NCBI GenBank assembly: GCA_019058295.1
Contig: JAHPZI010000021.1
Span: 96,001 to 160,000 of the forward strand
Direction: 5' to 3'
Origin: Promethearchaeota archaeon
GTDB taxonomy: Archaea > Asgardarchaeota > Lokiarchaeia > Sigyniarchaeales > SOKP01
Length of the DNA: 64,000 nt
The stretch's first letter is position 1; the number at the start of each line of letters is the position of its first letter. The notes beneath the pieces were generated by a model, which saw only the letters and a program-made list of their open reading frames with translations, was not told where the DNA came from and did no database searches. Below are positions 21,133 to 59,326 of this stretch, piece after piece. The position numbers were made by a program, and so were the translations under genes.

Positions 21133-21304
21133 TTATATTACTTCCTATATTCTTATACTTTCTTAAATTATTTTCATTATAGAGTTATCTTATTTAAATA
21201 TTTTTTTAAAAAACAAATCAGAATAACGATATTGAAAAATTAAATAAATTTTTATTCAAACATCGATTATTTATAGAATTAAATAAAAATTAGGTGAAAT
21301 TATA

Positions 21305-21802
21305 ATTAAAGTCTTAGTTACTTATTTTTCTCAAACGGGAAATACTAAAAAGATTGCTGAAGCGATATTTGAGGAAATTCAAACAGAAAAAGAAATTAAA
21401 CCGCTTAAGGAAGTCGATGATCTTGAGGGATACGACTTTTCTTTTATTGGATTTCCTATACATTCAGGTGGACCAACCAAAAGGGCAGCAGATTTTATTA
21501 AAAAAAATGCTATCGATAAGAAAATAGCTCTGTTCGTCACCCATGCAATGCCAGCGGATTATGATATGCTTCCGGGTTTATTAAATAGATGCGAAAAATC
21601 TGCAAGAAAAGCAGACCTAAAGGGATTTTTTGACTGTCAAGGGGAGCTCGCTGAAAAAGTAGCTCAAATGTTGTTAAAAAGTGGAAATCCTCAATTGGAA
21701 TTATTTGGGAAAATGCGTGATGTGACTGTTGGTCATCCAAATGCGGATGAAATTGAGAGTGCTCGTAATTTTGCTAAAGAAACAATAGAAAAGTTTAAGT
21801 AA
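21305..21802 (+). CDS. Flavodoxin-like protein; ORF extends 81 codons upstream of the track start and apparently begins at ATT
   Basis: IKVLVTYFSQTGNTKKIAEAI FMN-binding loop is in frame with 21548-21802; AGGTGA at 21292-21297; in-frame stop at 21284. Confidence 0.85.
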   Translation: MKVLVTYFSQTGNTKKIAEAIFEEIQTEKEIKPLKEVDDLEGYDFSFIGFPIHSGGPTKRAADFIKKNAIDKKIALFVTHAMPADYDMLPGLLNRCEKSARKADLKGFFDCQGELAEKVAQMLLKSGNPQLELFGKMRDVTVGHPNADEIESARNFAKETIEKFK

Positions 21803-21822
21803 TTAAAAAAGGAGATTTTTTT

Positions 21823-23289
21823 TTAGTCATTTCTGGTCAATTCTTTAGTTACTGGAGTGCACCCAAGTCGATCTTTAAATTGGCGCATAAAATCCATATC
21901 AATTGGCTCACGAGCATCCTCCCAGCAGAGCTTTAATAGCTCTTTTGCCTTTTCTGGAGCTTCTGAAATGATATTTTTATTCAATTTAGGATCCTTATTT
22001 ACATCAAATAAACTGCCTTCTTCTATATCCCATATATACCCATTATACCAGAAATCATTATTATATACTGCTACGGAGCCTCCCCAAGCTATGGTAACAT
22101 GATCATAGTAACTCACCGTATCATCTTTAACTAAAGACAATAAATCCTTCCCATCCATATTTTTTGAAGGAATTTTACATGCATTACATATTGTTGCTGC
22201 TATATCGAAATGGTAGCAGAATTTATCGCAGGTCTTACCAGCAAATTCACCTCCTGGGAATCGAATCATAGCGACAAGGTCGGCCACTTCTCGCCCTAAA
22301 GGATTAGCGGCTTTTGCAATTAGACCATGCTCTCCTAACATATGGCCATGATCCGAAACCACCACAATGATAGAATTATCCCAAATACCAATTCGCTTAA
22401 TATAGTCAATAAAATATCCAAACCAAGTATCCATAAGCGAAACTTCTGCGGCATAACGCGTTTTTAAGTTTTTGAGCTCTTGTTCGGAGAGAATACTTGC
22501 TGGGCCATATAACGAATGAGTAATTCTTTGACATCCCTTTTCCCAATCTGGATCTTCTTCATACATTCGAATGTAATGAAGAGGAGGATTCCAAGGTTCA
22601 TGTGGATCGAACGATTCCACAGTCATAAATCCTTTACCGTTTATTAGAGCATCATAGTTTATATCTAACCATTCTCCAGCTTTGCGAAATACTTGGGCAG
22701 GAAACGTATCAGTTTCAGAGCGCCACCAGCGCGTATTTTTTAAAAATTGTTCCATCATGAATTTTGCAAAAACGGTTCCTGAGGTAGTTCCTTGCTGTTT
22801 GGAAGTAAGATATTTTTGGAGATCTTCGTTAGAAATTTCTGGACCAGAAAGAAAGGCATCTTCTTCTTGTCCACGGATCCATTCCCATTGAGTAAATCCA
22901 CGTTGAAAATTATATCCAGGTTTAAATTGATGATATACATCAGAAAACAATGCAGAAATATATTTTTTTCGTTGAAACCGTTCTGCCAGAGTATCATACG
23001 ATTCTGAAATGTTGCCCCAACCAGGTGCACCGAGAGCATCACCGATAAAGTCTCCCTTCCCAGATTTAGTCTCTCCTAGCTTATCCTCTGTAAAAGGAAA
23101 GACCCGCTTCCCAGTATAGATGGCTTTTCGCACGGGAAGCGTTGGGAGGGAATCAGGATACATTTTTGTAAATTTCACAGATTCCTGAGCAAAATTATCA
23201 AGATGAGGTGTTTTTATCCAATTATTTCCATAACATCCTAAATGATCTTGTCTCAATGTATCAAGGATAATTAATATTGCATTTACCAT
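21823..23289 (-). CDS. Sulfatase / alkaline phosphatase superfamily hydrolase
   Basis: DTLRQDHLGCYG, TLPVR..IYTG, FDPHEPW, SDHG. Confidence 0.88.
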   Translation of the reverse strand: MVNAILIILDTLRQDHLGCYGNNWIKTPHLDNFAQESVKFTKMYPDSLPTLPVRKAIYTGKRVFPFTEDKLGETKSGKGDFIGDALGAPGWGNISESYDTLAERFQRKKYISALFSDVYHQFKPGYNFQRGFTQWEWIRGQEEDAFLSGPEISNEDLQKYLTSKQQGTTSGTVFAKFMMEQFLKNTRWWRSETDTFPAQVFRKAGEWLDINYDALINGKGFMTVESFDPHEPWNPPLHYIRMYEEDPDWEKGCQRITHSLYGPASILSEQELKNLKTRYAAEVSLMDTWFGYFIDYIKRIGIWDNSIIVVVSDHGHMLGEHGLIAKAANPLGREVADLVAMIRFPGGEFAGKTCDKFCYHFDIAATICNACKIPSKNMDGKDLLSLVKDDTVSYYDHVTIAWGGSVAVYNNDFWYNGYIWDIEEGSLFDVNKDPKLNKNIISEAPEKAKELLKLCWEDAREPIDMDFMRQFKDRLGCTPVTKELTRND

Positions 23290-23431
23290 TAAAATTCATC
23301 AGATTTTTTTAATTGTTATAAAATTATTTACACATCTGTTTAATTAGAAATTTTATTGCTAATATGTGAATATTCCAATGTAGCATCAAAATTAATTATT
23401 TGTATTATAAATTATATCTTTTAAAGACTTA

Positions 23432-24904: not shown

Positions 24905-24919
24905 TAAATAGACTTCAAA

Positions 24920-25135
24920 CTACTCTCTCCATTCTTCTTCGTCAAAAACGACGGCTTTAAACTTGATTTTATCGTCAGAGACATCTACAATAGTGAAGGG
25001 AGACCCACAATCCTGACATTCAATAACATCGTCTACTTCTGGATCTTCTATCAGATTTTCAAAGTAGCATTCGGAACATTCCAATTTAAACTTACCACCT
25101 TCTTTTTCTGTAGACTCATAAATTTTTTCAGCCAT
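24920..25135 (-). CDS. lysW: LysW-like amino-group carrier protein
   Basis: CSEC...CQDCG zinc ribbon, acidic, C-terminal EEEWRE (canonical EDWGE); GGTGA RBS before the ATG at 25135. Confidence 0.75.
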   Translation of the reverse strand: MAEKIYESTEKEGGKFKLECSECYFENLIEDPEVDDVIECQDCGSPFTIVDVSDDKIKFKAVVFDEEEWRE

Positions 25136-25511
25136 ATATATCACCGTTATTAATTATAATAATAAGTTAAATTTTAGATACTATTTTTATTTTTTGGCGT
25201 AAATTAAAATTAATCAGTTATAATGGTACAATTCTCATAATTAAGTTCTTATGAAATTGGATTCTTATAGTAAGAATTTATAACTTTGTTTTTAGAAAGA
25301 AAAATCTCATTAATTTTTAATACAAGACAAATTATCCCTTTTTTGAGGAGTTTATTGTAAAATGAGGCTAATTATCTTTCAAAAAACAAAAGATTAAAAA
25401 CTACTTTTTTTATTATTCCTATTGCAAATTCGGATAAATTAGAAAAAAAAAATTTTTTATTTCTTTTATTGTCTAATTTAATGAAAAAAGGGGTAAGTTA
25501 GGGGTATAATT

Positions 25512-28500
25512 ATGATTGATCCTAATAATATTGAAGAACTATTAGAATATTCTGAAGAAAAATATAGAGCTCTTTTCGACAATGCTCCATTTGCCATTGG
25601 AATTGTAGATATGGAGGGAAGAATTGTTGATATCAATTATTACCATGAAAGTAATGGAGGATTTGAAAAGAAAGATTTAATTGGTAAAAAATTCATTGAG
25701 ACTGGAGTAATACCAAAGAATTATGAAAAAGTTTTTATAGATGTTTTTAAAGAATTAGTTAAGGGAAATACTCCAGAACCAAAAGAAGTTCAAATTTATA
25801 ATAAAAAGGGAGATTTAATCTGGGTTAAAATACAATGCTCCTTCATAAAACTAGGAAAAGAAAAATTAATTCAAGTTATAACCCAAGATATTACTGAAAA
25901 AAAAAAAACAGAACAGAAATTAAAAGAATCAAAATTCCGTTATATTAATTTTATAGAAAATTTTCATGGGATTGCGTTTCAAGGATATCAAGACTTTTCA
26001 ATAGGATTTTTTCATGGAGCTATCGAGGAAATAACCGGATATGCTAAAAATGCATTCTTGTTAGGAAAAATTAAATGGGATCAAATTATCCATCCTGATG
26101 ATTTAACACAATACAAAAATAATATAAAACAATTTCATTCATCGTCTAAGACGTCAAATAGTCGAGAATACCGGATTATCCGAAAAAATGGAGATTTACG
26201 ATGGGTAACAGAAACAATTCAAAAATTTTACGATGATAAAACCAATATGGAAGGTGTTCGTGGTACTATTATAGATATTACTGAGAGAATGAACTCAGAA
26301 AAAAAACTCAAAGAATCTGAAGAAAGATATCGATTAATTACAGAAAATATAACTGATATGGTAGCCATTATTACCGGGGATTTCGTAATAGAACATATTA
26401 ACGAATCAATACATAAAAAATATTTAGGTTATTCAAAGGATGATTTATTAGGCAAAAAATCCTTAGATCTAATACATCCAGATGATCTCAAAAATATTTT
26501 GCATTTGTACAAAAAAGAGTTGGAGGTTGGTGAAGGTAGAGCAGAACTTAGATATAAAAAGAAAAATGGGGATTATATATGGCTGGAGATACAAGGAAAG
26601 AAATTTATCGATATTGATGGAAACGAAAAATTCCTTGCAGTTTCAAGAGATATTTCTGAAAAAAAAACAATGGAACAATCTTTAAAAAAATCTCAAGATG
26701 AAAAATTATTTATTTTAAATAATATTCCGGCGCTAATTGCGTTTCAAGATAGAGAACATAATATTTTATATGCAAATAAAGCTGCTGGAGATTCTGTTAA
26801 TAAATCCGCTGAAGAGTTATTAGGGAGAAAATGCTATGAGATTTGGAATATAAGGAGAGAACCATGTGAAAATTGTCCTGTACATGCTACCTTGATATCA
26901 GGGAAGGGTGAGTTAAAAGAAATGACAACACCCGATGGAAGAATATGGCAAATAAGAGGCTTTCCCGTTAAAGATGATAATGAAAATATAATTGGAGCTA
27001 TTGAAGTGACAGCCGAAATTACCAAGCGCAAAAAAGCAGAACAAAGATTAAAAGAATCTGAAATAAAATATAAAAATCTTTTTGACAATTTTCCGATTGG
27101 TATATTCTTATTTGATGACTCTGGAAATTTACTTGAGGGAAATACAAAGGTATATAACTCATTCTCAGGATATCCTCCTGATCAAAGTATTGGAAAGAGT
27201 TTCTTAGAGATAATATCCTTATTTAAGAATTCTGATGAATTATCAAAGATATTTAAGAATAGAGCAATGGAAAGAGCCAATGGAAAGGAACTGAAACCTA
27301 TTGAACTGAAATTAGTAAGACAAGATGGAAAAGAATTATGGATATATTGGCATAGTATAGTTTTAAAACTTAAAAACAAATCTATAATTCAAGCAGTAGT
27401 TCAAGACATCACTGAGCGTAAGAAATTTGATCAAATGTTAAGAGAATCTGAGGAAAAATTTCGGACTTTATATGAAAATATAGCAGGAGGTACGTTAATT
27501 ATTAGTGATGACTATATTATTAGAGATGTGAATGAGAGAACTTGTGAAATTACTGGATATAAAAAGGAAGAGCTAATTGGAAAGCTATGTGATATAGTAT
27601 GTCCGAAAGGTTCAGCGTCCAAATCTTGTCCTATTTGGGAAGGTGAAAAAGAAGGATTTAAAGGTATGGACACAGCAATCAAATGTAAAGATGGAAGAAA
27701 AAATCCAATTTTGAAAAATGCAAAAAGAATTCTATTTGAAGGAAAAATACATATCCTCGAGAATTTTCAAGATATAAGTGAAAGGAAAAATGCAGAAATC
27801 AAATTAAAAGAATCTGAAGAAAAATATAGAAGTTTATATGAAAACTCTATAAATGCGATTATTTTACTTGATTTTAATGGAAAAATTATTGATTGCAATT
27901 CAGCCACTGAGAAAATATGTGGCTATACTAAGGATGATATAATTGGTCAAAACTACTTAAAATTACCGTTTTATCCAAAAAGTATGATTAAAGTGTTAAA
28001 AGAGAGATTTCAAGCAATATCAAAAGAGTTAGATTTAAAATCACAAGAATTACAAATTAAAAGAAAAGATGGGAATTTCGCATGGGTTAAAACTAAGATA
28101 TCTTACATAAAAATAGGAAATCAAAATTATTTACAAGTATTAGTTCAAGATATAACTGAACAGAAAAATGCTGAAGAAAAATTAAGAGAATCTGAAAAAA
28201 AATATCGCAAGATTTTTGAATCTATTCCTGATCTATTCTTTTTAGTCTCAAATGATAGTACAATATTAGATTATAACGCTAGTAGTGAAATTGATTTTTA
28301 TGTACCACCAGAGAAATTTATGAATGTTAAATTGATAGATTTTTTTTCTCAAGAAATTAGAGAAAAAACTCTTGTAAAAATAAATGACGTCCTTGAATTA
28401 AAAAAACCACAAATCTTAGAATATTCCATACCTATTAATGATAAAACACGATTTTTTGAAGCCAGATTTCTATTCTTTTCTAAAAACAAAATCTTAATAT

Positions 28501-30527
28501 TCATTAGAGACATCACAGATAAGAAGGAATCGGAAAAAGGAATATTAGAACATGCCAAAAAATTAGAAATATTAAATCAAATTATAATAGCCGGAAACAA
28601 AACAGAAGATTTAACATCATTATTAGAAGATATTTTAACTCAAACCCTCAAATTATTAAATTTTAGTGGTGGAGGTATATATCTTGTTAATAAAACAAAA
28701 AAAATTGCTGAATTGGTATGCTATAAGAATCTTCCTATAGATTTCATTGAATTTGTAAGATTAAGAAAGATTGATCAAGAACCAAATAAAACTATTTTTA
28801 TTAAAGGTGAACCAATTTTTAGTGAAAATTATCAAATAATTGAACCCTTAATTGTTAAAAAGTGGGGTCTTTTATCTATTGTTAGTATTCCTTTATTTTC
28901 AAAGGATGAAATTATTGGAGCTTTGAATATTGCTTCAAAAACTCGTCATAAATTTACATTTCAAGAAAAAGATATACTTATTTCTATTGGACGAGAAATT
29001 GGAACTGTAATTTCTAAAATTAAAGCTGAAGAGACAATAAAAGAAGGGGAAAAATTTCTTTCAAATATTTTTACTAGTATTCAAGATGGAATGTGCATTT
29101 TAGATAAAGATTATAATATCATTCAGACAAATCCTACAATGGAAAAGTGGTATTCTCATAAAAAACCACTTACCAATTTAAAATGCTATCAATTATTTCA
29201 TGATAAAAATGAACCATGTGAGGATTGTGGTTGTTATCATGTAATTGAAACAGGAGAGTCTTGTATTAAATATATTCCCCGATTAGGACCTAAAGGAAAT
29301 ATTTTGGGGACATTAGAGATCTACACTTTCGCATTCTATAATCAAGAAACGGGTAAAATTTCAGGAATAATTGAATATATTCGTGATATTACAAATCAAT
29401 ATAAAACTGAAGAAAAATTAAAGCAGTCTGAAGAAAAATCTCGAGGAATATTAGAAAACATAAAAGAAGGCTATTTTGAAATTGATTTGCAGGGGAATTT
29501 TACTTTTTATAATGATGCGCTACATCAAATTCTTGGATATTCTGAAAAAGAATTGGGGGGTGTGAATCTAAATAGAATAGTAGATAATCAAACGAATAGA
29601 GAATTAAGACAATTTTTCTATAATATCTTCCAAACAGAAATTCCTCAAACTAGTTTTCAATTTGAAATTAGAAAGGGAATTATGGAAAAAAAAGTCCTAG
29701 AAACTTCCGGTTATCTAAGATATGATACAAATAAAAATAAAATTGGATTTTGTGGATTGGTTCGAGATATTACGGAAGCAAAGAAAGTTGAGTATATGGT
29801 TAAAGAGGAGATCAGAAAACTTAAAGAACTAGATTTATTAAAGGATGAATTTATGTTCAGAGCATCTCATGAATTAAAGACCCCTTTAAATCTTGTATGT
29901 AGTGCTTCATCTCGGCTTTTAGAGTCATATAAAGATAAATTAACTTCAAAAGAAAAGCAATTGGTAGAAGTTATAAATAAAGGGGGTGAGCGATTAGAAA
30001 AATTGATTAAAGCTTTACTAGATTTATCTCAAATTGAAACAGGGAAATTGGAATTGGATAAACATAATGAAAACATTTCAAAAATATTAGAAGGCTGCAT
30101 TAATGATACCTATTATTTAATTATAGAACGTGATTTAAACTTAAAAATGGATATTCAAAAAGAAATTTTTACTAAGGTAGATAAAATTAGATTTGAACAG
30201 GTTATATTTAATTTAATATCAAACGCAATAAAATATACACCTCCAAAAGGAACATTATCAGTAAATTTAAAAATTCAAAACGGATTTATCAAAATTGAGA
30301 TAAAAGATAATGGTGTTGGATTCACTGGTGATGAAATAAAGAAGATTTTTACAAAATTTGGTAAAATTGAAAGATATGGAAAAGGGATGGACATAGATTC
30401 TGAGGGATCTGGACTTGGATTATATCTATCTAAAAAAATTGTTGATGCTCATAATGGTGTGATTTGGGTTGAGTCAGAAGGCAGAAATAGAGGGTCTTCC
30501 TTTATTATCAAATTACCAATTAATTAA
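25512..30527 (+). CDS. Soluble sensor histidine kinase: about 10 PAS + GAF + HisKA + HATPase
   Basis: Repeated DITE..K..E.KLKESE linkers; SHELKTPL; NLISNAIKY, DNGVG, GSGLGL; no TM segment seen. Confidence 0.93.
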   Translation: MIDPNNIEELLEYSEEKYRALFDNAPFAIGIVDMEGRIVDINYYHESNGGFEKKDLIGKKFIETGVIPKNYEKVFIDVFKELVKGNTPEPKEVQIYNKKGDLIWVKIQCSFIKLGKEKLIQVITQDITEKKKTEQKLKESKFRYINFIENFHGIAFQGYQDFSIGFFHGAIEEITGYAKNAFLLGKIKWDQIIHPDDLTQYKNNIKQFHSSSKTSNSREYRIIRKNGDLRWVTETIQKFYDDKTNMEGVRGTIIDITERMNSEKKLKESEERYRLITENITDMVAIITGDFVIEHINESIHKKYLGYSKDDLLGKKSLDLIHPDDLKNILHLYKKELEVGEGRAELRYKKKNGDYIWLEIQGKKFIDIDGNEKFLAVSRDISEKKTMEQSLKKSQDEKLFILNNIPALIAFQDREHNILYANKAAGDSVNKSAEELLGRKCYEIWNIRREPCENCPVHATLISGKGELKEMTTPDGRIWQIRGFPVKDDNENIIGAIEVTAEITKRKKAEQRLKESEIKYKNLFDNFPIGIFLFDDSGNLLEGNTKVYNSFSGYPPDQSIGKSFLEIISLFKNSDELSKIFKNRAMERANGKELKPIELKLVRQDGKELWIYWHSIVLKLKNKSIIQAVVQDITERKKFDQMLRESEEKFRTLYENIAGGTLIISDDYIIRDVNERTCEITGYKKEELIGKLCDIVCPKGSASKSCPIWEGEKEGFKGMDTAIKCKDGRKNPILKNAKRILFEGKIHILENFQDISERKNAEIKLKESEEKYRSLYENSINAIILLDFNGKIIDCNSATEKICGYTKDDIIGQNYLKLPFYPKSMIKVLKERFQAISKELDLKSQELQIKRKDGNFAWVKTKISYIKIGNQNYLQVLVQDITEQKNAEEKLRESEKKYRKIFESIPDLFFLVSNDSTILDYNASSEIDFYVPPEKFMNVKLIDFFSQEIREKTLVKINDVLELKKPQILEYSIPINDKTRFFEARFLFFSKNKILIFIRDITDKKESEKGILEHAKKLEILNQIIIAGNKTEDLTSLLEDILTQTLKLLNFSGGGIYLVNKTKKIAELVCYKNLPIDFIEFVRLRKIDQEPNKTIFIKGEPIFSENYQIIEPLIVKKWGLLSIVSIPLFSKDEIIGALNIASKTRHKFTFQEKDILISIGREIGTVISKIKAEETIKEGEKFLSNIFTSIQDGMCILDKDYNIIQTNPTMEKWYSHKKPLTNLKCYQLFHDKNEPCEDCGCYHVIETGESCIKYIPRLGPKGNILGTLEIYTFAFYNQETGKISGIIEYIRDITNQYKTEEKLKQSEEKSRGILENIKEGYFEIDLQGNFTFYNDALHQILGYSEKELGGVNLNRIVDNQTNRELRQFFYNIFQTEIPQTSFQFEIRKGIMEKKVLETSGYLRYDTNKNKIGFCGLVRDITEAKKVEYMVKEEIRKLKELDLLKDEFMFRASHELKTPLNLVCSASSRLLESYKDKLTSKEKQLVEVINKGGERLEKLIKALLDLSQIETGKLELDKHNENISKILEGCINDTYYLIIERDLNLKMDIQKEIFTKVDKIRFEQVIFNLISNAIKYTPPKGTLSVNLKIQNGFIKIEIKDNGVGFTGDEIKKIFTKFGKIERYGKGMDIDSEGSGLGLYLSKKIVDAHNGVIWVESEGRNRGSSFIIKLPIN

Positions 30528-30557: not shown

Positions 30558-31403
30558 TTATATAAGAGATAGTAAGCTTTCTAATTGATTAAATTTAAAT
30601 GGTTTTAAAAAATAACCATCAGCACCTGTTTCTATTAATTTTTTCTTGACTTCCGATTCTGGAACAGCAGTGACATAAAAAACAGGGATATCTTTAAGAT
30701 CATCATTAAATTTAATTTTTTTACAAATCTCATAACCGCTTATATCTGGTAAAATTATATCTAATAAGATAATCTTTGGTTTATAATTCTTTAACTCATC
30801 TAATCCTTGATTTCCCGTAAGAACTCCTTTGCATGTAAGATTTTTTGACTCAAAAAAATCATCTAGGATTGTTATAGCAGGTGGATTATCTTCAATTATT
30901 AAAATGTCATATTCAAATTTCTCGGGTTCAATCTCGTAGACAAGTTGATTAATTGTATTCTCAAGAAATTTGCTTTGATTGAGAATTTCTTTTATTTTTG
31001 TAAGAATATTTGGATTTAAATTGTTCGATTCATAATCAATAATTAATTGTGAAAAACCTTGTATAGTCGTTAACGGTTCTTTTAAATCATGAGAGATTCT
31101 AGAAATATCCTTTAAAAAATCTGATTTTGGTGAATTTTCAATATAAGAATTTACTGCTTTTCTAATAAATTTCGAAATCGTAGAAAAACTTTTTTCATCT
31201 GCAAAATTCTGCCATTTTTCTTTTGTTTCATCAGAAACTAAGATTCCTATACCCTTTTTATCTATTCCATAAATTTCTTCTCCTCTTTGCCATTTCTTAA
31301 ATCCTTCAGTTATAGCATTTCGCCAAATAGCTTTCTTTCCAGTTTCTGTTTCGTAACGGAGCATCTCTTCAGTTAATTTCTCTTCTTTAGTAATGAATAA
31401 CAC
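30558..31403 (-). CDS. Hybrid regulator: N-terminal motif + ribbon-helix-helix + HisKA + REC
   Basis: ILVSDETKEKW...TISKFIRKAV (RHH-like), SHDLKEPLTTIQGF, IIEDN..LLDIILPD..KPF. Confidence 0.8.
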   Translation of the reverse strand: MLFITKEEKLTEEMLRYETETGKKAIWRNAITEGFKKWQRGEEIYGIDKKGIGILVSDETKEKWQNFADEKSFSTISKFIRKAVNSYIENSPKSDFLKDISRISHDLKEPLTTIQGFSQLIIDYESNNLNPNILTKIKEILNQSKFLENTINQLVYEIEPEKFEYDILIIEDNPPAITILDDFFESKNLTCKGVLTGNQGLDELKNYKPKIILLDIILPDISGYEICKKIKFNDDLKDIPVFYVTAVPESEVKKKLIETGADGYFLKPFKFNQLESLLSLI

Positions 31404-33020: not shown

Positions 33021-33473
33021 TCATAATAGTGAGCCTAAACTTTCAAAGAGCTCCTCTTTAGAAGTTTCTTCTTTGAAATAGTTTTTAATCTCATCAATAA
33101 TTTTATTTGTTTCAAATTGAATTAATCCAAAATTAATCTTTTTAGAAAATATTACTTGAATAAGTACGTTTGAAAATACTCTTGTTATTAATATTGAAAA
33201 ATCTGCATCAAGGCTTTTGTCCATACCGGCATCAATCTTTATTTGTTCGAGCATTTTATTTTTATTGATTATTTCTATACCTCTTTCTGCCATTGATAAA
33301 ATACTTGCTGAGATCGCAGCAAAATTAATATTCATTTCCTCATATTGGTCGTTTTGTTCACTATTTGAAGCTATTACTAAACCATCTTCAGTAATTAAAG
33401 TTGAACTTTTAACGCCAGTATTTAAAATAAAATCATCTAAAAGATTTATTAATTTAATTCTAATATCTGACAT
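33021..33473 (-). CDS. Roadblock/LC7 domain protein
   Basis: STLITEDGLVIAS...FAAISASILSMAE; paralogue of 35473-35925. Confidence 0.85.
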   Translation of the reverse strand: MSDIRIKLINLLDDFILNTGVKSSTLITEDGLVIASNSEQNDQYEEMNINFAAISASILSMAERGIEIINKNKMLEQIKIDAGMDKSLDADFSILITRVFSNVLIQVIFSKKINFGLIQFETNKIIDEIKNYFKEETSKEELFESLGSLL

Positions 33474-33556
33474 ATAACATCCTGTTTTTCTTTGTCAATA
33501 TTTTACTTTTTTAGCTTTAATTGTAAATAAAAAAAAAAAAATAATAATTAAATTCT

Positions 33557-34712: not shown

Positions 34713-34829
34713 GAAGAAAATTATATTTATGTCAGAAAAAATTATATAGAAAATGATATTTTTTTATATTTTATAAAAAGGTATCCATTTTTTAGAAAAT
34801 TATGAAGAAAAAATGAGGAGAGTTTAAAA

Positions 34830-35471
34830 ATTAGTGAAAAAAGTATAAAAATTTTCGTGACTGGATTTTTTAATTCGGGAAAAAGTACTTTAGTACATAC
34901 GATTGACGACAAAGCTATCCATGTAGAAAAGGAATTAAGCAAAACATTTAATGAAGAAAAAACAACAACTACTACTGGTTTTGATTTGGGAAGACTAGTT
35001 TGGGCTCGTCCAAACTTAAATAACGAAACTGAAGGGGTAATTATGAGTAAGACAGAGTATTTAAGAGATAAAGATGAATATTTGGGATGGCATATAAAAT
35101 ATGTCGAGTTAAAAGGCAGTCCTGGCCAAATGCAATTTTCTACTGTCCGTAAAATTCTAGCAAAGGGAAGCGACGGTGTGATCTTTTTAATTGATGGATG
35201 TGATTTAGCGAATATTGGCAATGCGTTAGTCGTTTTGGAAGAAATCAAAGCAGTTCTAGGTTCAAATATACCAATGCGAATAATTGCTAATAAATCTGAT
35301 AGGGATGACTTTCATGGATGTGAGGTTATTACAAGTATGATTGGTGAAACAGTATATGTGGGTTCTGGTAAATATAATGTAGGTATAAAAGATGCAATTA
35401 TTGAAGTACTTAAGACAATTTTATATGGTTTAGACCAAAATAAAATTTCAAAAGAGAGTGTGGTAGCTTAA
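34830..35471 (+). CDS. MglA/CvnD-like small GTPase; probable ATT start
   Basis: G1 GFFNSGKST, G2 TTTGFDLG, G3 GSPGQ, G4 NKSD; strand SIKIFV lies upstream of the track's GTG; GAGGAG at 34815-34820. Confidence 0.88.
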   Translation: MSEKSIKIFVTGFFNSGKSTLVHTIDDKAIHVEKELSKTFNEEKTTTTTGFDLGRLVWARPNLNNETEGVIMSKTEYLRDKDEYLGWHIKYVELKGSPGQMQFSTVRKILAKGSDGVIFLIDGCDLANIGNALVVLEEIKAVLGSNIPMRIIANKSDRDDFHGCEVITSMIGETVYVGSGKYNVGIKDAIIEVLKTILYGLDQNKISKESVVA

Positions 35472-35472
35472 A

Positions 35473-35925
35473 ATGGCTAACTTAAAAGAAAAACAAATTG
35501 TACAGATTCTGAAAGATTTTAGAGGAAGGACAAACATTCTATGTTCTATTTTACTCAATGAAGATGGTTTGATTATTGCATTAGATCAAGCTCAAATGAA
35601 CGAAGATGATGAGTATCATTTATCTTTCAGTGCAATTTGCTCTGGTATTGTTGCATTAGCAGAAAATGGTATTGAAACGATAAAAGAGGAAAATAATGTT
35701 AAAAAAATATCAATTCAAGCGGGAGAACAATTAGATAAGGAGGGATTTACAATTATTCTTCAATCGGTCACAAAAAATATTAAACTATCGATAATGTTTC
35801 CAACGTACTTGAATTTCGGTGTAATTCTTTTTGAATTAAATCAAACAATTCAAAGATTATCGGAGTATTTTTCAATTCCTGAACAAATCAAAAATCTCGA
35901 TGGTGTCAGTACATTAATGCAATAA
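35473..35925 (+). CDS. Roadblock/LC7 domain protein
   Basis: SILLNEDGLIIA...FSAICSGIVALAE. Confidence 0.85.
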   Translation: MANLKEKQIVQILKDFRGRTNILCSILLNEDGLIIALDQAQMNEDDEYHLSFSAICSGIVALAENGIETIKEENNVKKISIQAGEQLDKEGFTIILQSVTKNIKLSIMFPTYLNFGVILFELNQTIQRLSEYFSIPEQIKNLDGVSTLMQ

Positions 35926-37525: not shown

Positions 37526-37600
37526 TAGATTTAGTTTGAAAAAAAGGGTCACTTTTGGTGGTTTAATATACTGAAGGAAGAAAGGATTAATTTTGAAAAT

Positions 37601-38254
37601 TTGGTAAATAACGTTAACATAGAATGCCCAATATGCAAGACAATGAAAGTGTTAAAAATTCCATTAAAAATTATAAATCAGAGTAAGCAACTTACTACTG
37701 TGTCTGTACCAATAGGATTAGTGTGCAAACATAATTTTCAAGCTTTCATAGATAAAAATTTTAAAGTGAGAGGATATCAAAAAGTTGATTTTCATTTTTC
37801 AAAAATGGAATTTTATGAGGGAGGCATCAACTCTACTATTTCTGACTTAGAAAATGAACAAAAAGTAGAAGAACAATTGATTCAGCTCAGTTCAAAGCCA
37901 ATATTTATTGAAATTTTAAAACTTTTAAGAACTTATGTAGATGATGAGGATATTTTAGGAAGTGCTCTCTTTACATTAGAAGGAAAGGTATTATATTCAT
38001 CCTTACCATTGATGACATTAAATAATATAATTAGAGAATTTGAAATTAGAAATCAGAAGGAATTAATTCAAGTAGAAAAACTTTTTCTGGTTTTAACTAA
38101 TAAACAGAAAATATTCTCGCAATTTCTTGAGATTAGGGGTTATTCTCTTATTATAACTTTAATTTTTTCAAAAAAAATTCAATTAGGTATGGGAGATTTA
38201 CACTTAAGGGAATTAATAAAAAAAATATTAAAAATTAATCCATGTATGAATTAA
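37601..38254 (+). CDS. Zinc-ribbon + roadblock/profilin-like domain protein
   Basis: CPIC...CKH, FIDKNFKVRGYQKVDF; ILGSALFTLEGKVLYSSL. Confidence 0.6.
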   Translation: MVNNVNIECPICKTMKVLKIPLKIINQSKQLTTVSVPIGLVCKHNFQAFIDKNFKVRGYQKVDFHFSKMEFYEGGINSTISDLENEQKVEEQLIQLSSKPIFIEILKLLRTYVDDEDILGSALFTLEGKVLYSSLPLMTLNNIIREFEIRNQKELIQVEKLFLVLTNKQKIFSQFLEIRGYSLIITLIFSKKIQLGMGDLHLRELIKKILKINPCMN

Positions 38255-41141: not shown

Positions 41142-41417
41142 TTATTTCCTTAAAGCTTTTTCATCAATTTTTCCAATCACATTTAAAGGTAAATTATCGG
41201 AAATTTCAATTATTTTAGGTAACTTGTATTTAGCTAAATTGTCTTGAGCGTATTTTAAAATATCTGCTTTTGTCTCTTCATTATTCTCGTATCCTTCTTT
41301 CAAAAGTACATAAAATTTGACAATTTCGGAGCTTGAACGATCTGGATTGGGTAATCCCTCGCATTCACAAAGCTCAATTGGAGGATGTATATTGTATACT
41401 ATTTTTTTAAGTTTCAA
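41142..41417 (-). pseudogene. C-terminal fragment of an acyl-CoA synthetase
   Basis: GLPNPDR.SSEIVK.YV.LK, LAKYKLPK, LPLNVIGKIDEKALR; the large N-terminal domain is missing. Confidence 0.75.
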
Positions 41418-41465
41418 TTTTAATAAAAGATAAGATAATAAATAAATCAGGCTGCCTTAAAAAAA

Positions 41466-41855
41466 CTATTTATTCATAGAAATCTGAGGTTTTTTTATCC
41501 TTAGTGCCTTTTCAATGTTCTCTATTAATTTTTTATTTGAAAAAGGTTTCGTTTTAAAGCACAAAACTCCAATAGAAAGTGCAATTTCCTTAATGGTAGT
41601 ATCGGCACTTGCGAATATTATTTTTGCCTCACTATTGATACTAAGAATCTCTTTTGAGGCTTCAATTCCGCTCTTAATAGGCATTCGATGGTCCATTATG
41701 ATAATATCTGGCTTTATGGGGAAATTTTTATACATTTCTACTGCTTCCTTTCCATTTTTAGCAGTGCCAATAACATCAAAGCCAGAGGCTCTCAGCAATA
41801 TCTCATATAATTGCAGTATTGCTAATTCATCCTCAACAATAAAGATAGATGCTAT
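41466..41855 (-). CDS. Single-domain response regulator (CheY-like REC); probable ATA start
   Basis: IASIFIVEDE acidic pocket is upstream of the track's TTG; IMDHRMP, FASAD, KPF. Confidence 0.88.
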   Translation of the reverse strand: MASIFIVEDELAILQLYEILLRASGFDVIGTAKNGKEAVEMYKNFPIKPDIIIMDHRMPIKSGIEASKEILSINSEAKIIFASADTTIKEIALSIGVLCFKTKPFSNKKLIENIEKALRIKKPQISMNK

Positions 41856-41856
41856 T

Positions 41857-44800
41857 TTATATCAGCTCCGGAATTAATATAATAAAATTGCTTCCTTGTG
41901 AGGGATCTCCTTTAACTTTATCTTCTACCCAAATATCTCCATTGTATTCTGATAAAACTCTTTTTACAAGTAATAATCCCAATCCCATACCATGAGTTTT
42001 TTCCTTTCGATCAGAAATCCCTTTGAAGATATGTTCTTTCATTACATCTGGAACACCAATTCCATTATCGATGAATTCAAATTTTGCATAATTAGTACCA
42101 TTTTTAAACTCTCGAGAGATTTTTACAAAGATTTCAATTCTCTTATTCTCATTATATTTAATACCATTAAAAAGGATATTTTCAAAGACATCTAATAAGA
42201 GTTGGTTTGCGTTGACCTTAACTTCTTTGATCTGGGATTCAATAGCAATATTTATGTCTTTATTGGGGAGGCTTTTGTGAATAAAGCCCTTTGCTTCTTT
42301 TAAGATTTGAATTCCATCAACTTTTTCCAGAGGACTCACTGTTTCTGTAATTTCTGAGAGTTTTCTAATATTTGAAACGAGTTTTGATCCCCTTATTAAT
42401 TGATCATTAATAATTATCATTAATTCGTTGATCTTATTTATTTTCTCAGGTTTATTTTCCCACATTGAAAGGAGCCCTAAAGAGGATTGTATATTTTGAA
42501 GTATATTACTTATATCATGAGCAAATAAATCCTTATAGAATTCCGCTCGCTCATAAGCCTCCCGAAAATCTTCTTCGGATTTTTTTAATTTCTGTTCGGC
42601 CACCACCTCTTCTGTAATATCTCTTGCGATACATAAAATTCCTTCGGTTATTGGATACACACTTACTTCATAGTGTCCTATATGACCATTAGGAAGATTA
42701 AATGAATCCCTCACACGGTTTGGGATTCTTGAATTCATTACATCTTCGTATGTCTTAAAGAAGGGAGTTTGTTCTATACCCGGAAACACGTCAGTTATTT
42801 TATGCCCTAACAAATTATCTCTTGGCATATTAACTAATTTTTCAGCTAATTTATTAACTAAGGTGTATACCCAATCTCGATTTATCGCGTAAACTCCATC
42901 TGTTATAGATTCTAAAAGCATCTCATAGCGTTCTGACATTGTACGGTATTTTTCTTCAGATTCTTTTAAGTTTTCTTCAGCATTTTTCTGCTCAGTTATA
43001 TCTATAAATATTTCTTGAACTGCTGGTTTATTATTAAAAGTAATGAGTGAAGCATATATTTCAACAATTCGAGGAGTACCATCTTTTCGAATAATACGAA
43101 ATTGATAATTTGGTGGAACTGGTTTTCCTTTTAAACGTTCCTTATGGCGATTTAAAACGAATTCTCTATCATCTGGATGTATTAGGCTTATAACTTCTTC
43201 TTTAGACATAGACAGTAAATCATCAACGCTATATCCCAAGATATTCGATAATGCCTTATTTGCGAATATAATTTGAACTTCTTGAAGAATACATATTCCT
43301 TGTAATGATTTTTCTACCAACATTCGATATTTTTCTTCTGATTCTTTTAATTTTTGTTCCGCTTTTTTGCGCTCTGTAATGTCCCTTATAAACATGACAA
43401 CCTTATTTTCAGAAAAATATAGAAAACGACCTTCATAATAATGTATCCCATCTTTCATTTGTAGTTTATATTCAAATATCTGTTGTTCTTTTGAATTAAT
43501 TGCTTTTTTAATATGTTCTGCGCTTACTCTACCCACTTCAGGAGGTAATATTTCTATAGCTTTTTTTCCTAGGAATTCCTCTGGAGGTATGTATAATTCT
43601 TCCATTTTGCCACTATATTCTAAAATGGTGGTATCAGCAGCCACTAAGAAAAATAAATCAGGTAGCGCTTCAAAAATAGCCCTAAATTTCTTTTCAGATT
43701 CTTTTAATTTTTGTTCTGCTTTCTTTCTTTCAGTGATATCTCTCATAATAGATAAATAAGTGTTTTCGTCCTTCTCTCCAATACTATCCATATTCAATAA
43801 TGCCGTAAAAGTGCTATTATCCTTCCGCCTTAATTCAACCTCAAAATCTCGAACAAAACCTTTTTCACTTAATATTTGAAATAATTCAGAACGTTGTTCA
43901 TTAGAAACATATGTATTTTGGATACCAACCATGTTTACCTCTTCCTTGCTATAACCAGTAATCTCTTGGAGAACCGAATTCATTTTTAGTACCTTTCCAG
44001 GAGACACAACTCCAATTCCTATTGGTGATTTTTCAAATAATAACCGATATGATTCTTCTGATTCTTTCAATTTTTGTTCTGTTTTTTTGCGATCGGAAAT
44101 ATCCCTAAGAATGGCTAAATCAGCAGGCTCTCCCTTCCATTCTGTTTTCGCGGCATTTATTTCAACACATACGTTGGGTCCATCCTTTTTAAGTAAAATT
44201 GTTTCATATTTTGCGAGGGTTGGTTTACCATCAATTCTTTTCTTAAATCTTTCCATAACCTTATTAATTTCATCAGGATGCAATAAATTTTTAATATTGA
44301 GTTTGAGCAATTCATCAATACTATAACCTGTTACCTCTGAAGCTCGCTCATTTGCATAAACAATTTTGCCTTCTCCCATTCCAATGAAAATACAGTCATT
44401 AGCATTATTAGCTATATCTCTAAAATTCTTCTCAGATTCTTTTAATTTTTCTTCAGCTTTTTTCTGTTCGGTTATATCCTGGATTATGGCTTGGAAAAAA
44501 TTTTCTCCTCGTATTGTTATATTAGCAATATCAGATTTAATCCTTGCAATTTCTCCATCTTTTCTTTTAACTTCTAATTCCTGTGGTTTTATTCCACCAC
44601 CTTTAGTTATTGCTTGAAATCTTTCTTTTAATACATTGATCATACTTTCCGAATAAAAAGGTAATTGTAAGTAATTTTGACCAATTAGTTCATCTCTTGA
44701 ATAACCAAATATGGTCTCAGTACCTGAATTGCAATCAATAATATTTCCAGTGAAATCAAGCAATGCAATTGCATTTGGCGAATTTTCATATATATTTCGA

Positions 44801-45237
44801 TATTTCTCTTCTGATTCTTTTAATTTTTGTTCTGCTCTCTTGCGTTCTGTAATATTACGCCATATTGCTTGTATATATTTCTTATTGTGTATATTTATTG
44901 CCTTGGCACTTACATAAACATCTATTATTTCACCGCTTTTTGTTATTTGTTTCGTTTCAAAGAGATCAGCTCCTTCTGTTAGAACTTTGAAAAAATGTCC
45001 CTTAACTTCTTCTGGTGTTTCGATAATTTCAAAGGCTGGTATCTTAAGTTTCTTAAATTCATCACGTGTATAGCCTAAGTTTTTATATGTTACATCATTG
45101 AAATCTACTAGTTCTCCTGTCTCTGGATCGATGAGTACAATTGAGTCTGCTGCTTGTTCGAATAAAGCGCGATATTTTATTTCACTATCCCTTAATAACT
45201 CATCATCATCATTTTCTTCATTTTTAGAATCGTTCAA
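41857..45237 (-). CDS. Soluble sensor histidine kinase: about 7 PAS + HisKA + HATPase
   Basis: DITERKKAEQKLKESE linkers; FAHDISNILQ; NILFNGIKY, DNGIG, GMGLGL. Confidence 0.93.
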   Translation of the reverse strand: MNDSKNEENDDDELLRDSEIKYRALFEQAADSIVLIDPETGELVDFNDVTYKNLGYTRDEFKKLKIPAFEIIETPEEVKGHFFKVLTEGADLFETKQITKSGEIIDVYVSAKAINIHNKKYIQAIWRNITERKRAEQKLKESEEKYRNIYENSPNAIALLDFTGNIIDCNSGTETIFGYSRDELIGQNYLQLPFYSESMINVLKERFQAITKGGGIKPQELEVKRKDGEIARIKSDIANITIRGENFFQAIIQDITEQKKAEEKLKESEKNFRDIANNANDCIFIGMGEGKIVYANERASEVTGYSIDELLKLNIKNLLHPDEINKVMERFKKRIDGKPTLAKYETILLKKDGPNVCVEINAAKTEWKGEPADLAILRDISDRKKTEQKLKESEESYRLLFEKSPIGIGVVSPGKVLKMNSVLQEITGYSKEEVNMVGIQNTYVSNEQRSELFQILSEKGFVRDFEVELRRKDNSTFTALLNMDSIGEKDENTYLSIMRDITERKKAEQKLKESEKKFRAIFEALPDLFFLVAADTTILEYSGKMEELYIPPEEFLGKKAIEILPPEVGRVSAEHIKKAINSKEQQIFEYKLQMKDGIHYYEGRFLYFSENKVVMFIRDITERKKAEQKLKESEEKYRMLVEKSLQGICILQEVQIIFANKALSNILGYSVDDLLSMSKEEVISLIHPDDREFVLNRHKERLKGKPVPPNYQFRIIRKDGTPRIVEIYASLITFNNKPAVQEIFIDITEQKNAEENLKESEEKYRTMSERYEMLLESITDGVYAINRDWVYTLVNKLAEKLVNMPRDNLLGHKITDVFPGIEQTPFFKTYEDVMNSRIPNRVRDSFNLPNGHIGHYEVSVYPITEGILCIARDITEEVVAEQKLKKSEEDFREAYERAEFYKDLFAHDISNILQNIQSSLGLLSMWENKPEKINKINELMIIINDQLIRGSKLVSNIRKLSEITETVSPLEKVDGIQILKEAKGFIHKSLPNKDINIAIESQIKEVKVNANQLLLDVFENILFNGIKYNENKRIEIFVKISREFKNGTNYAKFEFIDNGIGVPDVMKEHIFKGISDRKEKTHGMGLGLLLVKRVLSEYNGDIWVEDKVKGDPSQGSNFIILIPELI

Positions 45238-45366
45238 ATTTATTCCCTTTTTTTCATAATTTTATTTTTTTTAATATTATTTATTCTCCTTAAATCTTAT
45301 TTCATCTCGAAAATTTATACTTTTGTTTTAACAAAAATAAGAAACTTAAATAGAGGAGATTTCAAA

Positions 45367-47949: not shown

Positions 47950-48142
47950 GTAAAACGTAATTTATCATTTATCATTAAATAACAACCTTTATTTAATGAA
48001 TAAAGGTATAATCTTTTTTTTAAATCATAATCATCATATTTAAAAATAGAATTTTCTGTATAAAGTTAGAAAATTAATTTTTATAAAAATTAGAAAAAAT
48101 AATTGGATTCCCACTAAGCTAATAAAAAAATTCTCTAAAACT

Positions 48143-48916
48143 ATGTCTATAAAGAATTTGGAACAGATTCTTGAAAATGAATTAAATAAAATATATAAAA
48201 GAATTCTTGCTAAAAAAACCGTTAGGATTTGTATATATACTTTTTTTATTATATTTTACCCGGGAATTGTTTTGGCAATTACAATCGCAGATGTATATGG
48301 TCCAGAAGGATATAATATATTTAATAATTATATTAGTGATCTGGGCTCAATTAGATATACTCCTGCTCCATTTATTTTAGATGTTTTATTAATAAGTACC
48401 TCAATATTATTAATTCCTATTTTTCTTTATTTAGAACAAATTATTGTTTCAGGCCCTAATCTTAGTAAAAGATTTTTGAATACTTCAATTTTTATAAAAA
48501 TTTTAGCTAGAATTGGTAAGATCTCCTTTATATTAGGCTCTATTGGGTTGCTGGGTGCTGGTATTTTTAATGAAGACTTTTCACCATTTAATATACACAT
48601 TATTACAGCAATATTTTTTTTTGGAGGTTATTTTATTGGTGCTTTTTCTACTGGATTAATAATTTTATTAAAAAAAGTAATAATCCCAAAAGCGATAGGT
48701 TATATTATGGTATTTAATTCAAGTGGAATTTTTATTTTATATGCATTTATAAAGGTAACATTTATTACCTATTATTTTATTGAATGGTGTCTATTCTTAA
48801 GCATACTTATATGGTTTGTTCCAATTACAATCATAATATTAAGATATCAAGATAAAAGTATTAAAAAAAATTCATTAACAAATAGGGAAAAGAAAAAAAA
48901 TTTCGAATGCAAATAA
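48143..48916 (+). CDS. DUF998-like membrane protein
   Basis: GYNIFNNYISDLGS.RYTP, GIFNED..H, EW. Confidence 0.72.
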   Translation: MSIKNLEQILENELNKIYKRILAKKTVRICIYTFFIIFYPGIVLAITIADVYGPEGYNIFNNYISDLGSIRYTPAPFILDVLLISTSILLIPIFLYLEQIIVSGPNLSKRFLNTSIFIKILARIGKISFILGSIGLLGAGIFNEDFSPFNIHIITAIFFFGGYFIGAFSTGLIILLKKVIIPKAIGYIMVFNSSGIFILYAFIKVTFITYYFIEWCLFLSILIWFVPITIIILRYQDKSIKKNSLTNREKKKNFECK

Positions 48917-51824: not shown

Positions 51825-51944
51825 TTTATTTGCTTTATTTTTTTTAATTTTTCTATATTTTTTAACCAATATCTTTAAAAACAATTACTTTTAGTTTAAT
51901 AATGTTAATCAGCGTAATCAAATAATAAAAAAAGATCATATAAG

Positions 51945-53222: not shown

Positions 53223-53269
53223 TCTTTTTTATCAAAACATATATTTTAAATAATTAATAATTTTGCGAG

Positions 53270-53584: not shown

Positions 53585-53601
53585 TTCTCAAAAACCATAT
53601 T

Positions 53602-56052: not shown

Positions 56053-56413
56053 TTTTTCTTTTATTTAAAGAAATTCAAATTTATAGTAAATTTCTCATGC
56101 ATCTTTGTTTTCAGATTAATTTAAACAAATGGTTTAAATTTTATAAAAAAAAATACAGTTTTACATGTCGAAATTATAAATTTTTATCTATCTCATTTGA
56201 TTTCTAAGCTTTCATTATAATGTCATAATAATAGAACTATATTTACCATATAAAACGATTTAACAAATTTCTCTTAATTATCATATATTAAGTAGAAATC
56301 TAGATTTTATTAACCTTAATTTTAAATATAAAACAAGGTGATTTATTGTAAAAATAATTAAATCAGAAATATTGTTCAAAATAATCTTTATTATAATATA
56401 AATAGGTGCTATA

Positions 56414-58510: not shown

Positions 58511-58631
58511 ATCTCTTTTTTATTATTTTTATTTAACTATTCTAATAGATTAAGATTTAAAACCTTAATAGAGTATCAAAATTAGTTTTATATGTGAGTT
58601 TAGCTAAAATAAAATAAAATAAAAAAACCCA

Positions 58632-59096
58632 TTAACGAACAATTAAAACATCACATGATGCGTGTTCTAATGCTTTCTCAGCAACTGATCCCATAAGAAA
58701 CTCTTTTAATTTTGAATGTTCACCTTTATATCCTAATACAACAAGGTCAAATCCTTCTTCCTCTACAACTTTTTTAAGATATTCTGCAGGGTTTTCATCT
58801 TTTATTAATCTAGTTTCTACTTTAGCCATAGAAGAGCCAAAAATTTCTCGAGCATTATTTAATATAGTTTTTCCTTCTTCAATTTTTGTTCTTTCAATAT
58901 CTGAAGAACTCATTGCTGGGTAATGACTTGCTGTTGGCATTATGGAGAGTACTGGTACATTCTCAAAAAACTTATGCTTAATTGCATGGAAAATGACGAC
59001 CTTTCTTGGCCATTTTTCTTCAATTTCTCTAATTTTTATAACTGCTCGCATAGAATCTTCAGATCCATCAACACCAATCAAAATTTTCTTATAAAT
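58632..59096 (-). CDS. Universal stress protein; probable ATT start
   Basis: (I)YKKILIGVDGS N-terminus, DLVVLG..G, MGSVAEK...A.CDVLIVR; AGGTGA 6 nt upstream. Confidence 0.9.
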   Translation of the reverse strand: MYKKILIGVDGSEDSMRAVIKIREIEEKWPRKVVIFHAIKHKFFENVPVLSIMPTASHYPAMSSSDIERTKIEEGKTILNNAREIFGSSMAKVETRLIKDENPAEYLKKVVEEEGFDLVVLGYKGEHSKLKEFLMGSVAEKALEHASCDVLIVR

Positions 59097-59326
59097 TATA
59101 TATCACCTTATAAATTTTTAATTATTATCAATCCAAACTACTATCAAATAAGTAGACTTAAAAAGGTAATATTAAAGTTTTATAAATTATTTAGAAGAAC
59201 CTCTTTCTAAGATTAATCAGTATAGTAGCTTAACTTTAACATTCTTAACCCGTATTCTTAATAAGTTAAAACTACAATGAAGATTGACTATAGGATTATA
59301 ATCAAAATCCTCATGGAGGTTGATAT

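Follow-up and report, generated by a model that had tools for sequence, protein, structure and literature searches.

Probable near-cognate translation starts positioned by Shine-Dalgarno motifs in a Lokiarchaeia-type Asgard archaeon

Four genes and their start sites

A 64,000-nucleotide stretch of the genome of a Promethearchaeota archaeon (assembly GCA_019058295.1, contig JAHPZI010000021.1, positions 96,001 to 160,000; hereafter the window) contains four genes in which no ATG, GTG or TTG codon precedes the first conserved β-strand of the encoded protein. They encode a flavodoxin, a small GTPase, a single-domain response regulator (REC) and a universal stress protein (USP), and in each of them an ATT or ATA codon is found behind a Shine-Dalgarno (SD) motif at the place where a start codon is expected. 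The window (C21:96001-160000) is part of a metagenome-assembled genome (MAG) of 3.2 Mb in 30 contigs, with 30.7% GC and 79% completeness. Its gene content, including Roadblock-GTPase pairs, Snf7, RagA-like GTPases and multi-PAS kinases, fits a Lokiarchaeia-type Asgard archaeon.

The flavodoxin gene (21305..21802, plus strand; 165 amino acids and a stop codon) was identified by the Flavodoxin_3 profile. Its proposed start, ATT 21305, follows the SD motif AGGTGA (21292..21297, plus strand, read in the sequence) with a spacer of 7 nt; an in-frame TAA is located at 21284-86, and the earliest ATG, GTG or TTG of the open frame is codon 87. The Arf/MglA-like small GTPase gene (34830..35471, plus strand; 213 amino acids and a stop codon; Pfam Arf/GTP_EFTU/Ras) has ATT at 34830, separated by 9 nt from the SD-like motif GAGGAG (34815..34820, plus strand, read in the sequence), which implies a distance d of 7 as defined below. 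An in-frame TGA is present at 34803-05, and the earliest canonical codon is a GTG at codon 17, within β1 and right before the P-loop GFFNSGKS.

The other two genes are on the minus strand. The REC gene (41466..41855; Response_reg profile) has ATA at 41855-53 and the SD core GGAG at 41869-66, in the 3'-terminal part of the PAS histidine-kinase gene that precedes it. Its in-frame TGA occupies 41864-62, the ATA lies 1 nt past the kinase stop codon TAA (41859-57), and the earliest canonical codon is a TTG at codon 21, located 3' of the acidic IVEDE strand. The USP gene (58632..59096; 154 amino acids and a stop codon; Usp profile) has ATT at 59096, 6 nt behind the SD motif AGGTGA (59108-03), whose TGA doubles as the in-frame stop; here the earliest canonical codon is a TTG at codon 7, within KKILIGVDGS (β1).

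An in-frame stop codon lies 2-8 codons 5' of each of the four proposed starts. With the last G of GGTG in the anti-SD complement AGGAGGTGATCC taken as the anchor, the distance d is 7-9 for all four starts, which coincides with the peak of canonical starts in this genome. No 16S rRNA gene was found on the contigs of the 79%-complete MAG, and relatives were used to define the anti-SD: their 16S rRNA ends in GGATCACCTCCT, with the anti-SD CCUCC, so that the SD is part of AGGAGGTGATCC. The near-cognate codons hold the exact start-codon position, 6-9 nt behind an SD that can base-pair with the 16S 3' end GGAUCACCUCCU.

Profile searches placed the beginning of the conserved domains of the four proteins close to these codons. 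Flavodoxin_3 (PF12641) matched with an E-value of 3.8e-25 and 89 bits (cut-off 27.5), the profile positions 1-159 being aligned from residue 10 of the open frame. Response_reg (PF00072; 1.2e-19, 70.9 bits, cut-off 30.2) matched over positions 1-110 from residue 6, and Usp (PF00582; 6.6e-21, 75.8 bits, cut-off 24) over positions 2-141 from residue 4. The small GTPase matched Arf (PF00025; 6e-07, 29.5 bits, cut-off 22.3). Over the four genes, profile position 1-2 falls at residues 4-10 of the stop-to-stop frame; because the matches begin at the very first profile positions, a start at a canonical codon would cut away conserved structure. An initial reading of the window made without database searches (the sequence-only reading) had described the missing canonical starts, the stop codons just upstream and the ribosome-binding-site-like motifs before an Ile codon in these four genes, and all three features were recovered here by inspection of the sequence and by Pfam placement, the spacing of d = 7-9 being of the ATG type.

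Roadblock/LC7 genes are located beside the GTPase gene at 33021-33494 and 35467-35925. The latter is an overlapping downstream open reading frame (ORF), which adjoins the GTPase gene and scored 24.5 bits against Robl_LC7 (cut-off 23), so a GTPase gene stands beside a Roadblock/LC7 gene as in MglA/MglB-type pairs.

Conservation of the start codons in orthologues

Alignment of orthologue N-termini, which the sequence-only reading had proposed as a check, placed them exactly at the proposed codons, and the codon at this position varies between ATG, TTG, GTG, CTG, ATT, ATA and ATC behind a conserved SD. For the flavodoxin, a congener (G001, 79% identical) has ATG at the codon aligned with ATT 21305, located 6-7 nt behind the same GGTGA. 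The ATT of the GTPase gene at 34830 is kept in G004 (80% identical) with AGAGGAG at the same place, and G018 (73% identical) has ATG one codon upstream. At the position of REC ATA 41855, G009 carries ATC, with GGAGGTGA in the same attccgga context (attccggaggtga); the aligned codon is ATA in G010, ATC in G003, ATT in G001 and ATG in three other genomes. The USP start (ATT 59096) is ATT in three congeners (G001, G005 and G007), ATG in G004, G009 and G011, TTG in G024 and G025, and CTG in G020, and GGTGA followed by 6 nt mostly precedes the aligned start of USP homologues, including those with ATT, TTG and CTG.

Two further genes of this genome show how far such codons can be retained. The ATA of the ribosomal protein gene uS10 is also ATA in seven of eight congeners and is ATT, GTG, TTG or ATG elsewhere, and 12 or more genomes of the family share the ACG of atpC, at protein identities as low as about 46%, the sister family having ATG. 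In the alignments of all six proteins (flavodoxin, GTPase, REC, USP, uS10 and atpC), the proposed codon corresponds to residue 1 of homologues that start with ATG. The presence of the same codons across species indicates that the near-cognate starts have been maintained over long divergence and are not transient mutations.

These alignments bear on the possibility that translation starts at the first downstream ATG, GTG or TTG, the upstream in-frame part being an untranslated leader and the proteins being shorter than proposed. In three of the four genes a canonical codon is indeed near (the GTG at codon 17 and the TTGs at codons 21 and 7 mentioned above), and public gene calls use such downstream starts. 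We nevertheless regard this explanation as very unlikely, because the residues upstream of the canonical codon are conserved as protein in the orthologues and the first profile positions (1-2) of the Pfam matches coincide with the near-cognate codon. Downstream starts would remove β1 of each Rossmann-like fold, and the flavodoxin would lose 81 residues including the flavin mononucleotide (FMN) loop TYFSQTGNT. Moreover, the near-cognate codons are preceded by an SD at the exact spacing of ATG starts; the canonical codons further downstream lack an SD.

Near-cognate starts across the genome

For a genome-wide analysis we used 2,822 probable coding frames, taken from stop to stop. The anchor of the SD test was the last G of GGTG, and the distances of canonical starts from it have their peak at d = 6-9. 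Sites entered the test if they had an SD 5-mer and lacked a canonical start within 14 nt, and the in-frame codon at d = 7-9 was scored. This spacing-anchored test replaced a simple 4-mer SD score calculated on all leader codons, which gave a weak signal (ATT 7.9% versus 5.3% overall, the background within coding sequence being about 8%).

Where an SD was not followed by a canonical start, ATT made up 25% of the codons against a background of 6.3% (p=9e-15) and ATA 17.5% against 5.1% (p=5e-9). The same test showed enrichment of ATC (4.2% versus 1.1%, p=3e-3), CTG (2.8% versus 0.1%, p=1e-4) and ACG (3.3% versus 0.4%, p=3e-4). The sequence-only reading had named ATT and ATA; both are enriched, but the set is wider and also includes ATC, CTG and ACG. 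Two other codons, AAG (0.9% versus a background of 2.2%) and AGG (0.9% versus 0.6%), were not enriched at the SD sites, and neither were AAA, AAT and TTA. If only d = 8 is considered, ATT, ATA and ATC together account for 75% of the codons at SD sites without a canonical start. Taken over the five near-cognate codons, 52.8% of in-frame triplets belonged to this set versus 4.6% of out-of-frame triplets at the same distances (p=7e-44). The test yielded 108 candidate genes with an SD-led near-cognate start, compared to 471 SD-led canonical starts. A gene caller that takes the next canonical codon in the candidate genes would remove a median of 15 codons.

A homology test that is blind to the SD pointed in the same direction. 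A paralogue was available for 1,510 frames, and in 94 of them (6.2%) significant similarity was present at least 10 residues upstream of the first ATG, GTG or TTG. The frame start of 45 of these 94 aligns with the N-terminus of the paralogue, and many of them show GGTGA, then 6-7 nt, then ATT or ATA. An SD of at least 5 nt precedes 36% of the homology-defined near-cognate N-termini, versus 13% of ATG starts and 4% of control codons in the same windows. Strong SDs are therefore about three times as frequent as at ATG starts, a difference that points to compensation of the weak codon by SD strength. The SD-based excess of about 80 genes corresponds to 2.8% and the homology figures to 3.0-6.2%; from these values and the strong-SD share of 36% we estimate that near-cognate starts may be used in 3-8% of all genes.

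The SD test was also applied to other genomes, which were represented by 400-kb samples of low power and are related to each other. ATT, ATA and ATC together accounted for 47% of codons at the SD peak in the whole genome analyzed here (p=2e-28 versus background), for 32% in congener G001 and for 37% in G026, a member of another family of the order (p ~0.01 versus background in each). Two outgroup genomes gave 16% (G055) and 20% (G031), neither significant and both below the 47% found here (p ~0.001), and in both of them the gene of the initiation factor aIF1 starts at ATG. Since G055 is equally AT-rich (30.8% GC) and has a low share, AT-richness alone does not make the signal. On these data the trait appears to be common to the genus, to the family and to at least one other family of the order, and weak or absent in the two other Asgard families sampled.

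Essential genes and gene annotation

Twenty candidates were excised and scanned against Pfam. Near-cognate starts were found in this way for the ribosomal proteins uS12 (ATC), uS10 (ATA) and uS3 (ATT) and for subunits C (ACG) and D (ATA) of the A-type ATPase. Other Pfam-checked candidates encode HisA, 2-oxoacid:ferredoxin oxidoreductase, CopA, CobO, IscU, an ABC ATPase, TruD, a RagA/Gtr1-like GTPase and Snf7, and CTG starts were assigned to two metallo-β-lactamase-fold proteins and a PfkB kinase. In the HisA, IscU, metallo-β-lactamase-fold and RagA-like proteins, profile position 1-2 corresponds to residue 2. Because intact essential genes are affected, genes with near-cognate starts are not pseudogenes. 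The sequence-only reading had named pseudogenes with ATG in all close orthologues as what would speak against it; orthologues, however, share near-cognate codons, and the affected genes include essential ones. Its wider suggestion that start-codon selection is relaxed in this lineage is likewise supported by the orthologues, by the genome-wide SD test and by the essential genes, all of which are lines of sequence evidence.

Over 4,199 nt, ATT 21305 among them, a separately assembled Logan contig from run SRR14802572 shows 100% identity to the window. In the public gene call on this contig, the flavodoxin is an 84-aa protein that starts at the ATG of codon 87 and matches no Pfam family. This agrees with the earlier statement that gene callers truncate proteins of the lineage, the full frame encoding 165 residues.

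The same contig helps to judge whether the missing ATG codons are sequencing or assembly errors, or marks of decaying pseudogenes. Such artefacts deserve attention in a 79%-complete metagenome assembly, and we consider them extremely improbable, the least probable of the explanations weighed here. More than 100 sites share one frame- and spacing-specific pattern, and the second assembly of the flavodoxin locus shows no difference. The pattern recurs in independent assemblies of other species (ACG of atpC in at least 12, ATA of uS10 in 7, ATT or ATC of aIF1 in 14), and the affected genes, including those for ribosomal proteins and ATP synthase subunits, are intact.

Initiation factor aIF1 and the initiator tRNA

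The sequence-only reading had also suggested inspection of aIF1 and the initiator tRNA. Neither the aIF1 gene nor the initiator tRNA gene was found on the contigs of the 79%-complete MAG, and the two were therefore inspected in relatives: aIF1 mostly starts at ATT or ATC in the family, and the initiator tRNA is canonical.

In 14 of 16 family genomes, including seven congeners, aIF1 starts at ATT or ATC behind a conserved AAGGTTGTGA, and no canonical codon precedes its N-terminal CxxC zinc knuckle. The start is TTG, ATA or ATG in sister families and mostly ATG in other Asgard families, the exceptions being one family with CTG and two with ATA. At five loci of such families, L126 and L128 (G032, G044), L117 (G037) and L120 and L121 (G048, G058), aIF1 apparently starts at CTG (behind GGAAGGTG) or at ATA (behind AGGAGG), and again no canonical in-frame codon is present before the zinc knuckle. 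As these loci represent three other Asgard families, near-cognate aIF1 starts are not confined to the Loki-type order. The basic loop RKWG(R/K)xVT of aIF1 is retained in the alignment, along with clade-specific substitutions such as ACGGT to ASGGT.

In G007 and G026 the anticodon arm of the initiator tRNA is the canonical GGGCUCAUAACCC, with a CAU loop and a GGG:CCC stem, which indicates that the relaxation is not an anticodon change. Both loci, L212 (G007:C174, ~41544-41556) and L211 (G026:C1, ~751360), show a canonical 5' part and anticodon arm together with inserted sequence at non-standard positions. ARAGORN misses these initiator tRNAs because of the inserted sequence after the anticodon arm, and the genes are probably intron-containing or split.

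The tRNA genes are relevant to the idea that a dedicated initiator-like tRNA or another decoding rule acts at these codons, in which case the proteins would begin with Ile. A source for such a tRNA might be a cluster at C22:30303-33335, outside the window, which contains 27 intron-less tRNA genes on two strands, scattered tRNAs elsewhere in the genome carrying introns. Among the genes of the cluster are a tRNA-Met(CAU), which has an A1:U72 end and an encoded CCA but not the three initiator G:C pairs, and a tRNA-Ile(UAU). However, the enriched codons AUU, AUA, AUC, CUG and ACG are single-mismatch neighbours of AUG, which fits one CAU anticodon and not several tRNAs. The initiator anticodon arm is canonical in the relatives, and no tRNA combining initiator features with an anticodon matching AUU or AUA was seen among the tRNAs of the genome. 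We therefore judge a special tRNA to be unlikely, if somewhat less so than the other alternatives.

Alteration of the mRNA would leave the decoding rules untouched: the codons might be edited to AUG (for example by C-to-U editing at ACG), or a bulge-helix-bulge (BHB) mini-intron or a frameshift might join an upstream exon. Editing of ACG to AUG occurs in plant organelles. Conversion of AUU, AUA or AUC to AUG would require U-, A- or C-to-G changes, for which, to our knowledge, no editing system exists. Because the N-termini align with Met-1 of the orthologues, no upstream exon is missing, and an in-frame stop 2-8 codons upstream together with an SD at initiation distance also speaks against an exon junction. 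In the REC gene, the window in which a frameshift could generate a kinase fusion is only ~3 nt, and its homologues have their own ATG. Altered mRNA thus seems to us a very improbable explanation.

Neighbouring genes and further frames in the window

The fifth start proposed by the sequence-only reading, ATT 31394, belongs to a HisKA-REC protein gene (30558..31403, minus strand; Pfam HisKA and Response_reg). It was rejected as a required non-canonical start, as a GTG (31403-01) is in frame within its GGGTG, three codons upstream; the start of this gene, GTG 31403 or ATT 31394, is ambiguous. The TFB/TFIIB gene at 40201-41097 (plus strand) falls in the same ambiguous class, which has about 20 members across the genome: its sole early canonical codon is a GTG inside ataGGTGGttgaa, and an ATT follows three codons later at SD distance.

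The region is flanked by two genes for multi-PAS sensor histidine kinases, at 25497-30527 (plus strand, 1,676 aa) and at 41857-45261 (minus strand, 1,134 aa), the second of them directly upstream of REC. The two large kinases contain up to nine PAS stretches and GAF. Directly downstream of REC, a 104-aa frame at 41145-41456 (minus strand) has PF13193, the C-terminal domain of AMP-binding enzymes, as its sole match, which suggests either a gene remnant or a split gene.

The plus-strand frame 37535-38251 (239 codons) has its first canonical codon, a TTG, at codon 22. At 37568 (plus strand), ATA followed by CTG is located 6 nt past TGGTGG and may be a further near-cognate start. This frame and two other start-less frames of the window, 48050-48913 and 13503-14708, gave no informative Pfam match and were left out of the counts.

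Discussion

The best explanation of these results is that translation in this archaeon really starts at near-cognate AUU, AUA, AUC, CUG and ACG codons, a reading based on sequence comparison to which we assign a probability of about 0.85. Several observations count against it or restrict its reach. About 26 of the 108 SD-led candidates are expected by chance, and about 20 of the 108 have an in-frame GTG within the SD itself, three codons upstream, so that a canonical start is possible. An SD of at least 4 nt is lacking at about half of the near-cognate N-termini supported by homology; either SD positioning is not the whole mechanism, or some of the N-terminus calls are wrong. The contrast between genomes in the SD test is only suggestive, since the samples are small and the genomes related. 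Similarly, the link between the aIF1 start and genome-wide usage involves five non-independent genomes, and, with aIF1 and the initiator tRNA absent from the MAG, the idea of feedback through aIF1 described below draws on relatives only.

If near-cognate codons are used as start codons, the SD duplex would put the codon into the P site of the 30S subunit, where the ordinary initiator Met-tRNA (CAU) would pair with it through one mismatch. Proteins made in this way would start with Met, as a consequence of pairing by Met-tRNAi. The tolerance for the mismatch may be set by aIF1, which in the family would itself be translated from AUU or AUC behind a conserved AAGGUUGUGA motif. Little aIF1 would allow more AUU initiation and hence more aIF1, a negative feedback like that of infC, which would hold stringency at a permissive set-point. 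By this analogy, aIF1 feedback possibly stabilises the set-point.

In Escherichia coli, infC (encoding IF3) and pcnB start at AUU, and NCBI table 11 lists ATT, ATC and ATA as alternative starts. The sites described here resemble these bacterial starts in having a one-mismatch codon at normal SD spacing. Bacterial IF3 is autoregulated through the AUU start of infC (PMC4705826). The aIF1 gene is comparable in that a fidelity factor's own gene appears to use a near-cognate start (in the 14 of 16 family genomes), which suggests that the same feedback logic may apply, although aIF1 is a homologue of eIF1 and unrelated to IF3. Unlike in bacteria, where a handful of genes are concerned, an estimated 3-8% of genes would be affected here, including ribosomal and ATP synthase genes, and ACG and CUG would be used as well.

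Archaeal initiation has been described in the literature as using AUG, GUG and UUG only (PMC4705826; PMC7531240; PMC12993045), and aIF1 has been shown to block AUU complexes on 30S subunits of Saccharolobus solfataricus (PMC4705826). According to reviews (PMC7531240, PMC12993045), which make no mention of non-canonical starts, SD motifs are rare in Lokiarchaea. The anti-SD CCUCC, the RKWG(R/K)xVT loop of aIF1 and the initiator tRNA with its CAU anticodon and GGG:CCC pairs, all seen in relatives, correspond to the canonical archaeal system. In contrast to the published picture, AUU and AUA appear to be frequent starts here and are tied to strong SDs.

A closer parallel to the codon set is found in eukaryotes. 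There, near-cognate initiation is controlled by eIF1 and eIF5, and eIF1 is autoregulated through the poor context of its own start codon. As in eukaryotes, the codons CUG, ACG, AUU, AUA and AUC appear to be used and AAG and AGG not, and a homologous factor (aIF1/eIF1) would be central. Unlike in eukaryotes, the codon is reached by SD pairing and not by scanning and Kozak context, as illustrated by REC, whose proposed start is 1 nt past the stop codon of the upstream gene. A further difference is that the archaeal cases concern ordinary main ORFs and not mostly upstream ORFs or N-terminal extensions, and that GUG and UUG are normal starts.

The use of AUN starts in an AT-rich genome is also reminiscent of mitochondria. 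These organelles lack an SD and rely on reassignment of AUA to Met or on a modified tRNA-Met. The archaeal genes differ in giving standard-code Pfam matches, in the additional CUG and ACG starts and in the presence of an SD.

Near-cognate initiation as such is already known in bacteria, eukaryotes and organelles; what appears to be new is frequent, conserved and SD-guided near-cognate initiation in an archaeal lineage. Literature searches found no published description of this trait in Asgard archaea or Lokiarchaeota.

For annotation, a few percent of Asgard proteins would be shortened or overlooked by gene finders restricted to ATG, GTG and TTG. Catalogues of eukaryotic signature proteins, among them small GTPases, Snf7 and RagA-like proteins, would be affected as well. 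Both the codon spectrum and a possible self-control of aIF1 resemble eukaryotic non-AUG initiation, in the closest archaeal relatives of eukaryotes. We tentatively propose, at somewhat less than even odds, that Loki-type Asgard archaea keep a permissive set-point by means of one canonical initiator tRNA, which would read the same near-cognate codons as in eukaryotes, and the aIF1 loop, with weak starts conserved as tuners of expression even in ribosomal and ATP synthase genes. If this is true, eIF1-centred control of non-AUG initiation would predate eukaryotes and would have acted first on SD-led mRNAs, and a lineage that routinely uses AUU, AUA and ACG would offer a natural system for studying how the stringency of aIF1 and eIF1 is set.

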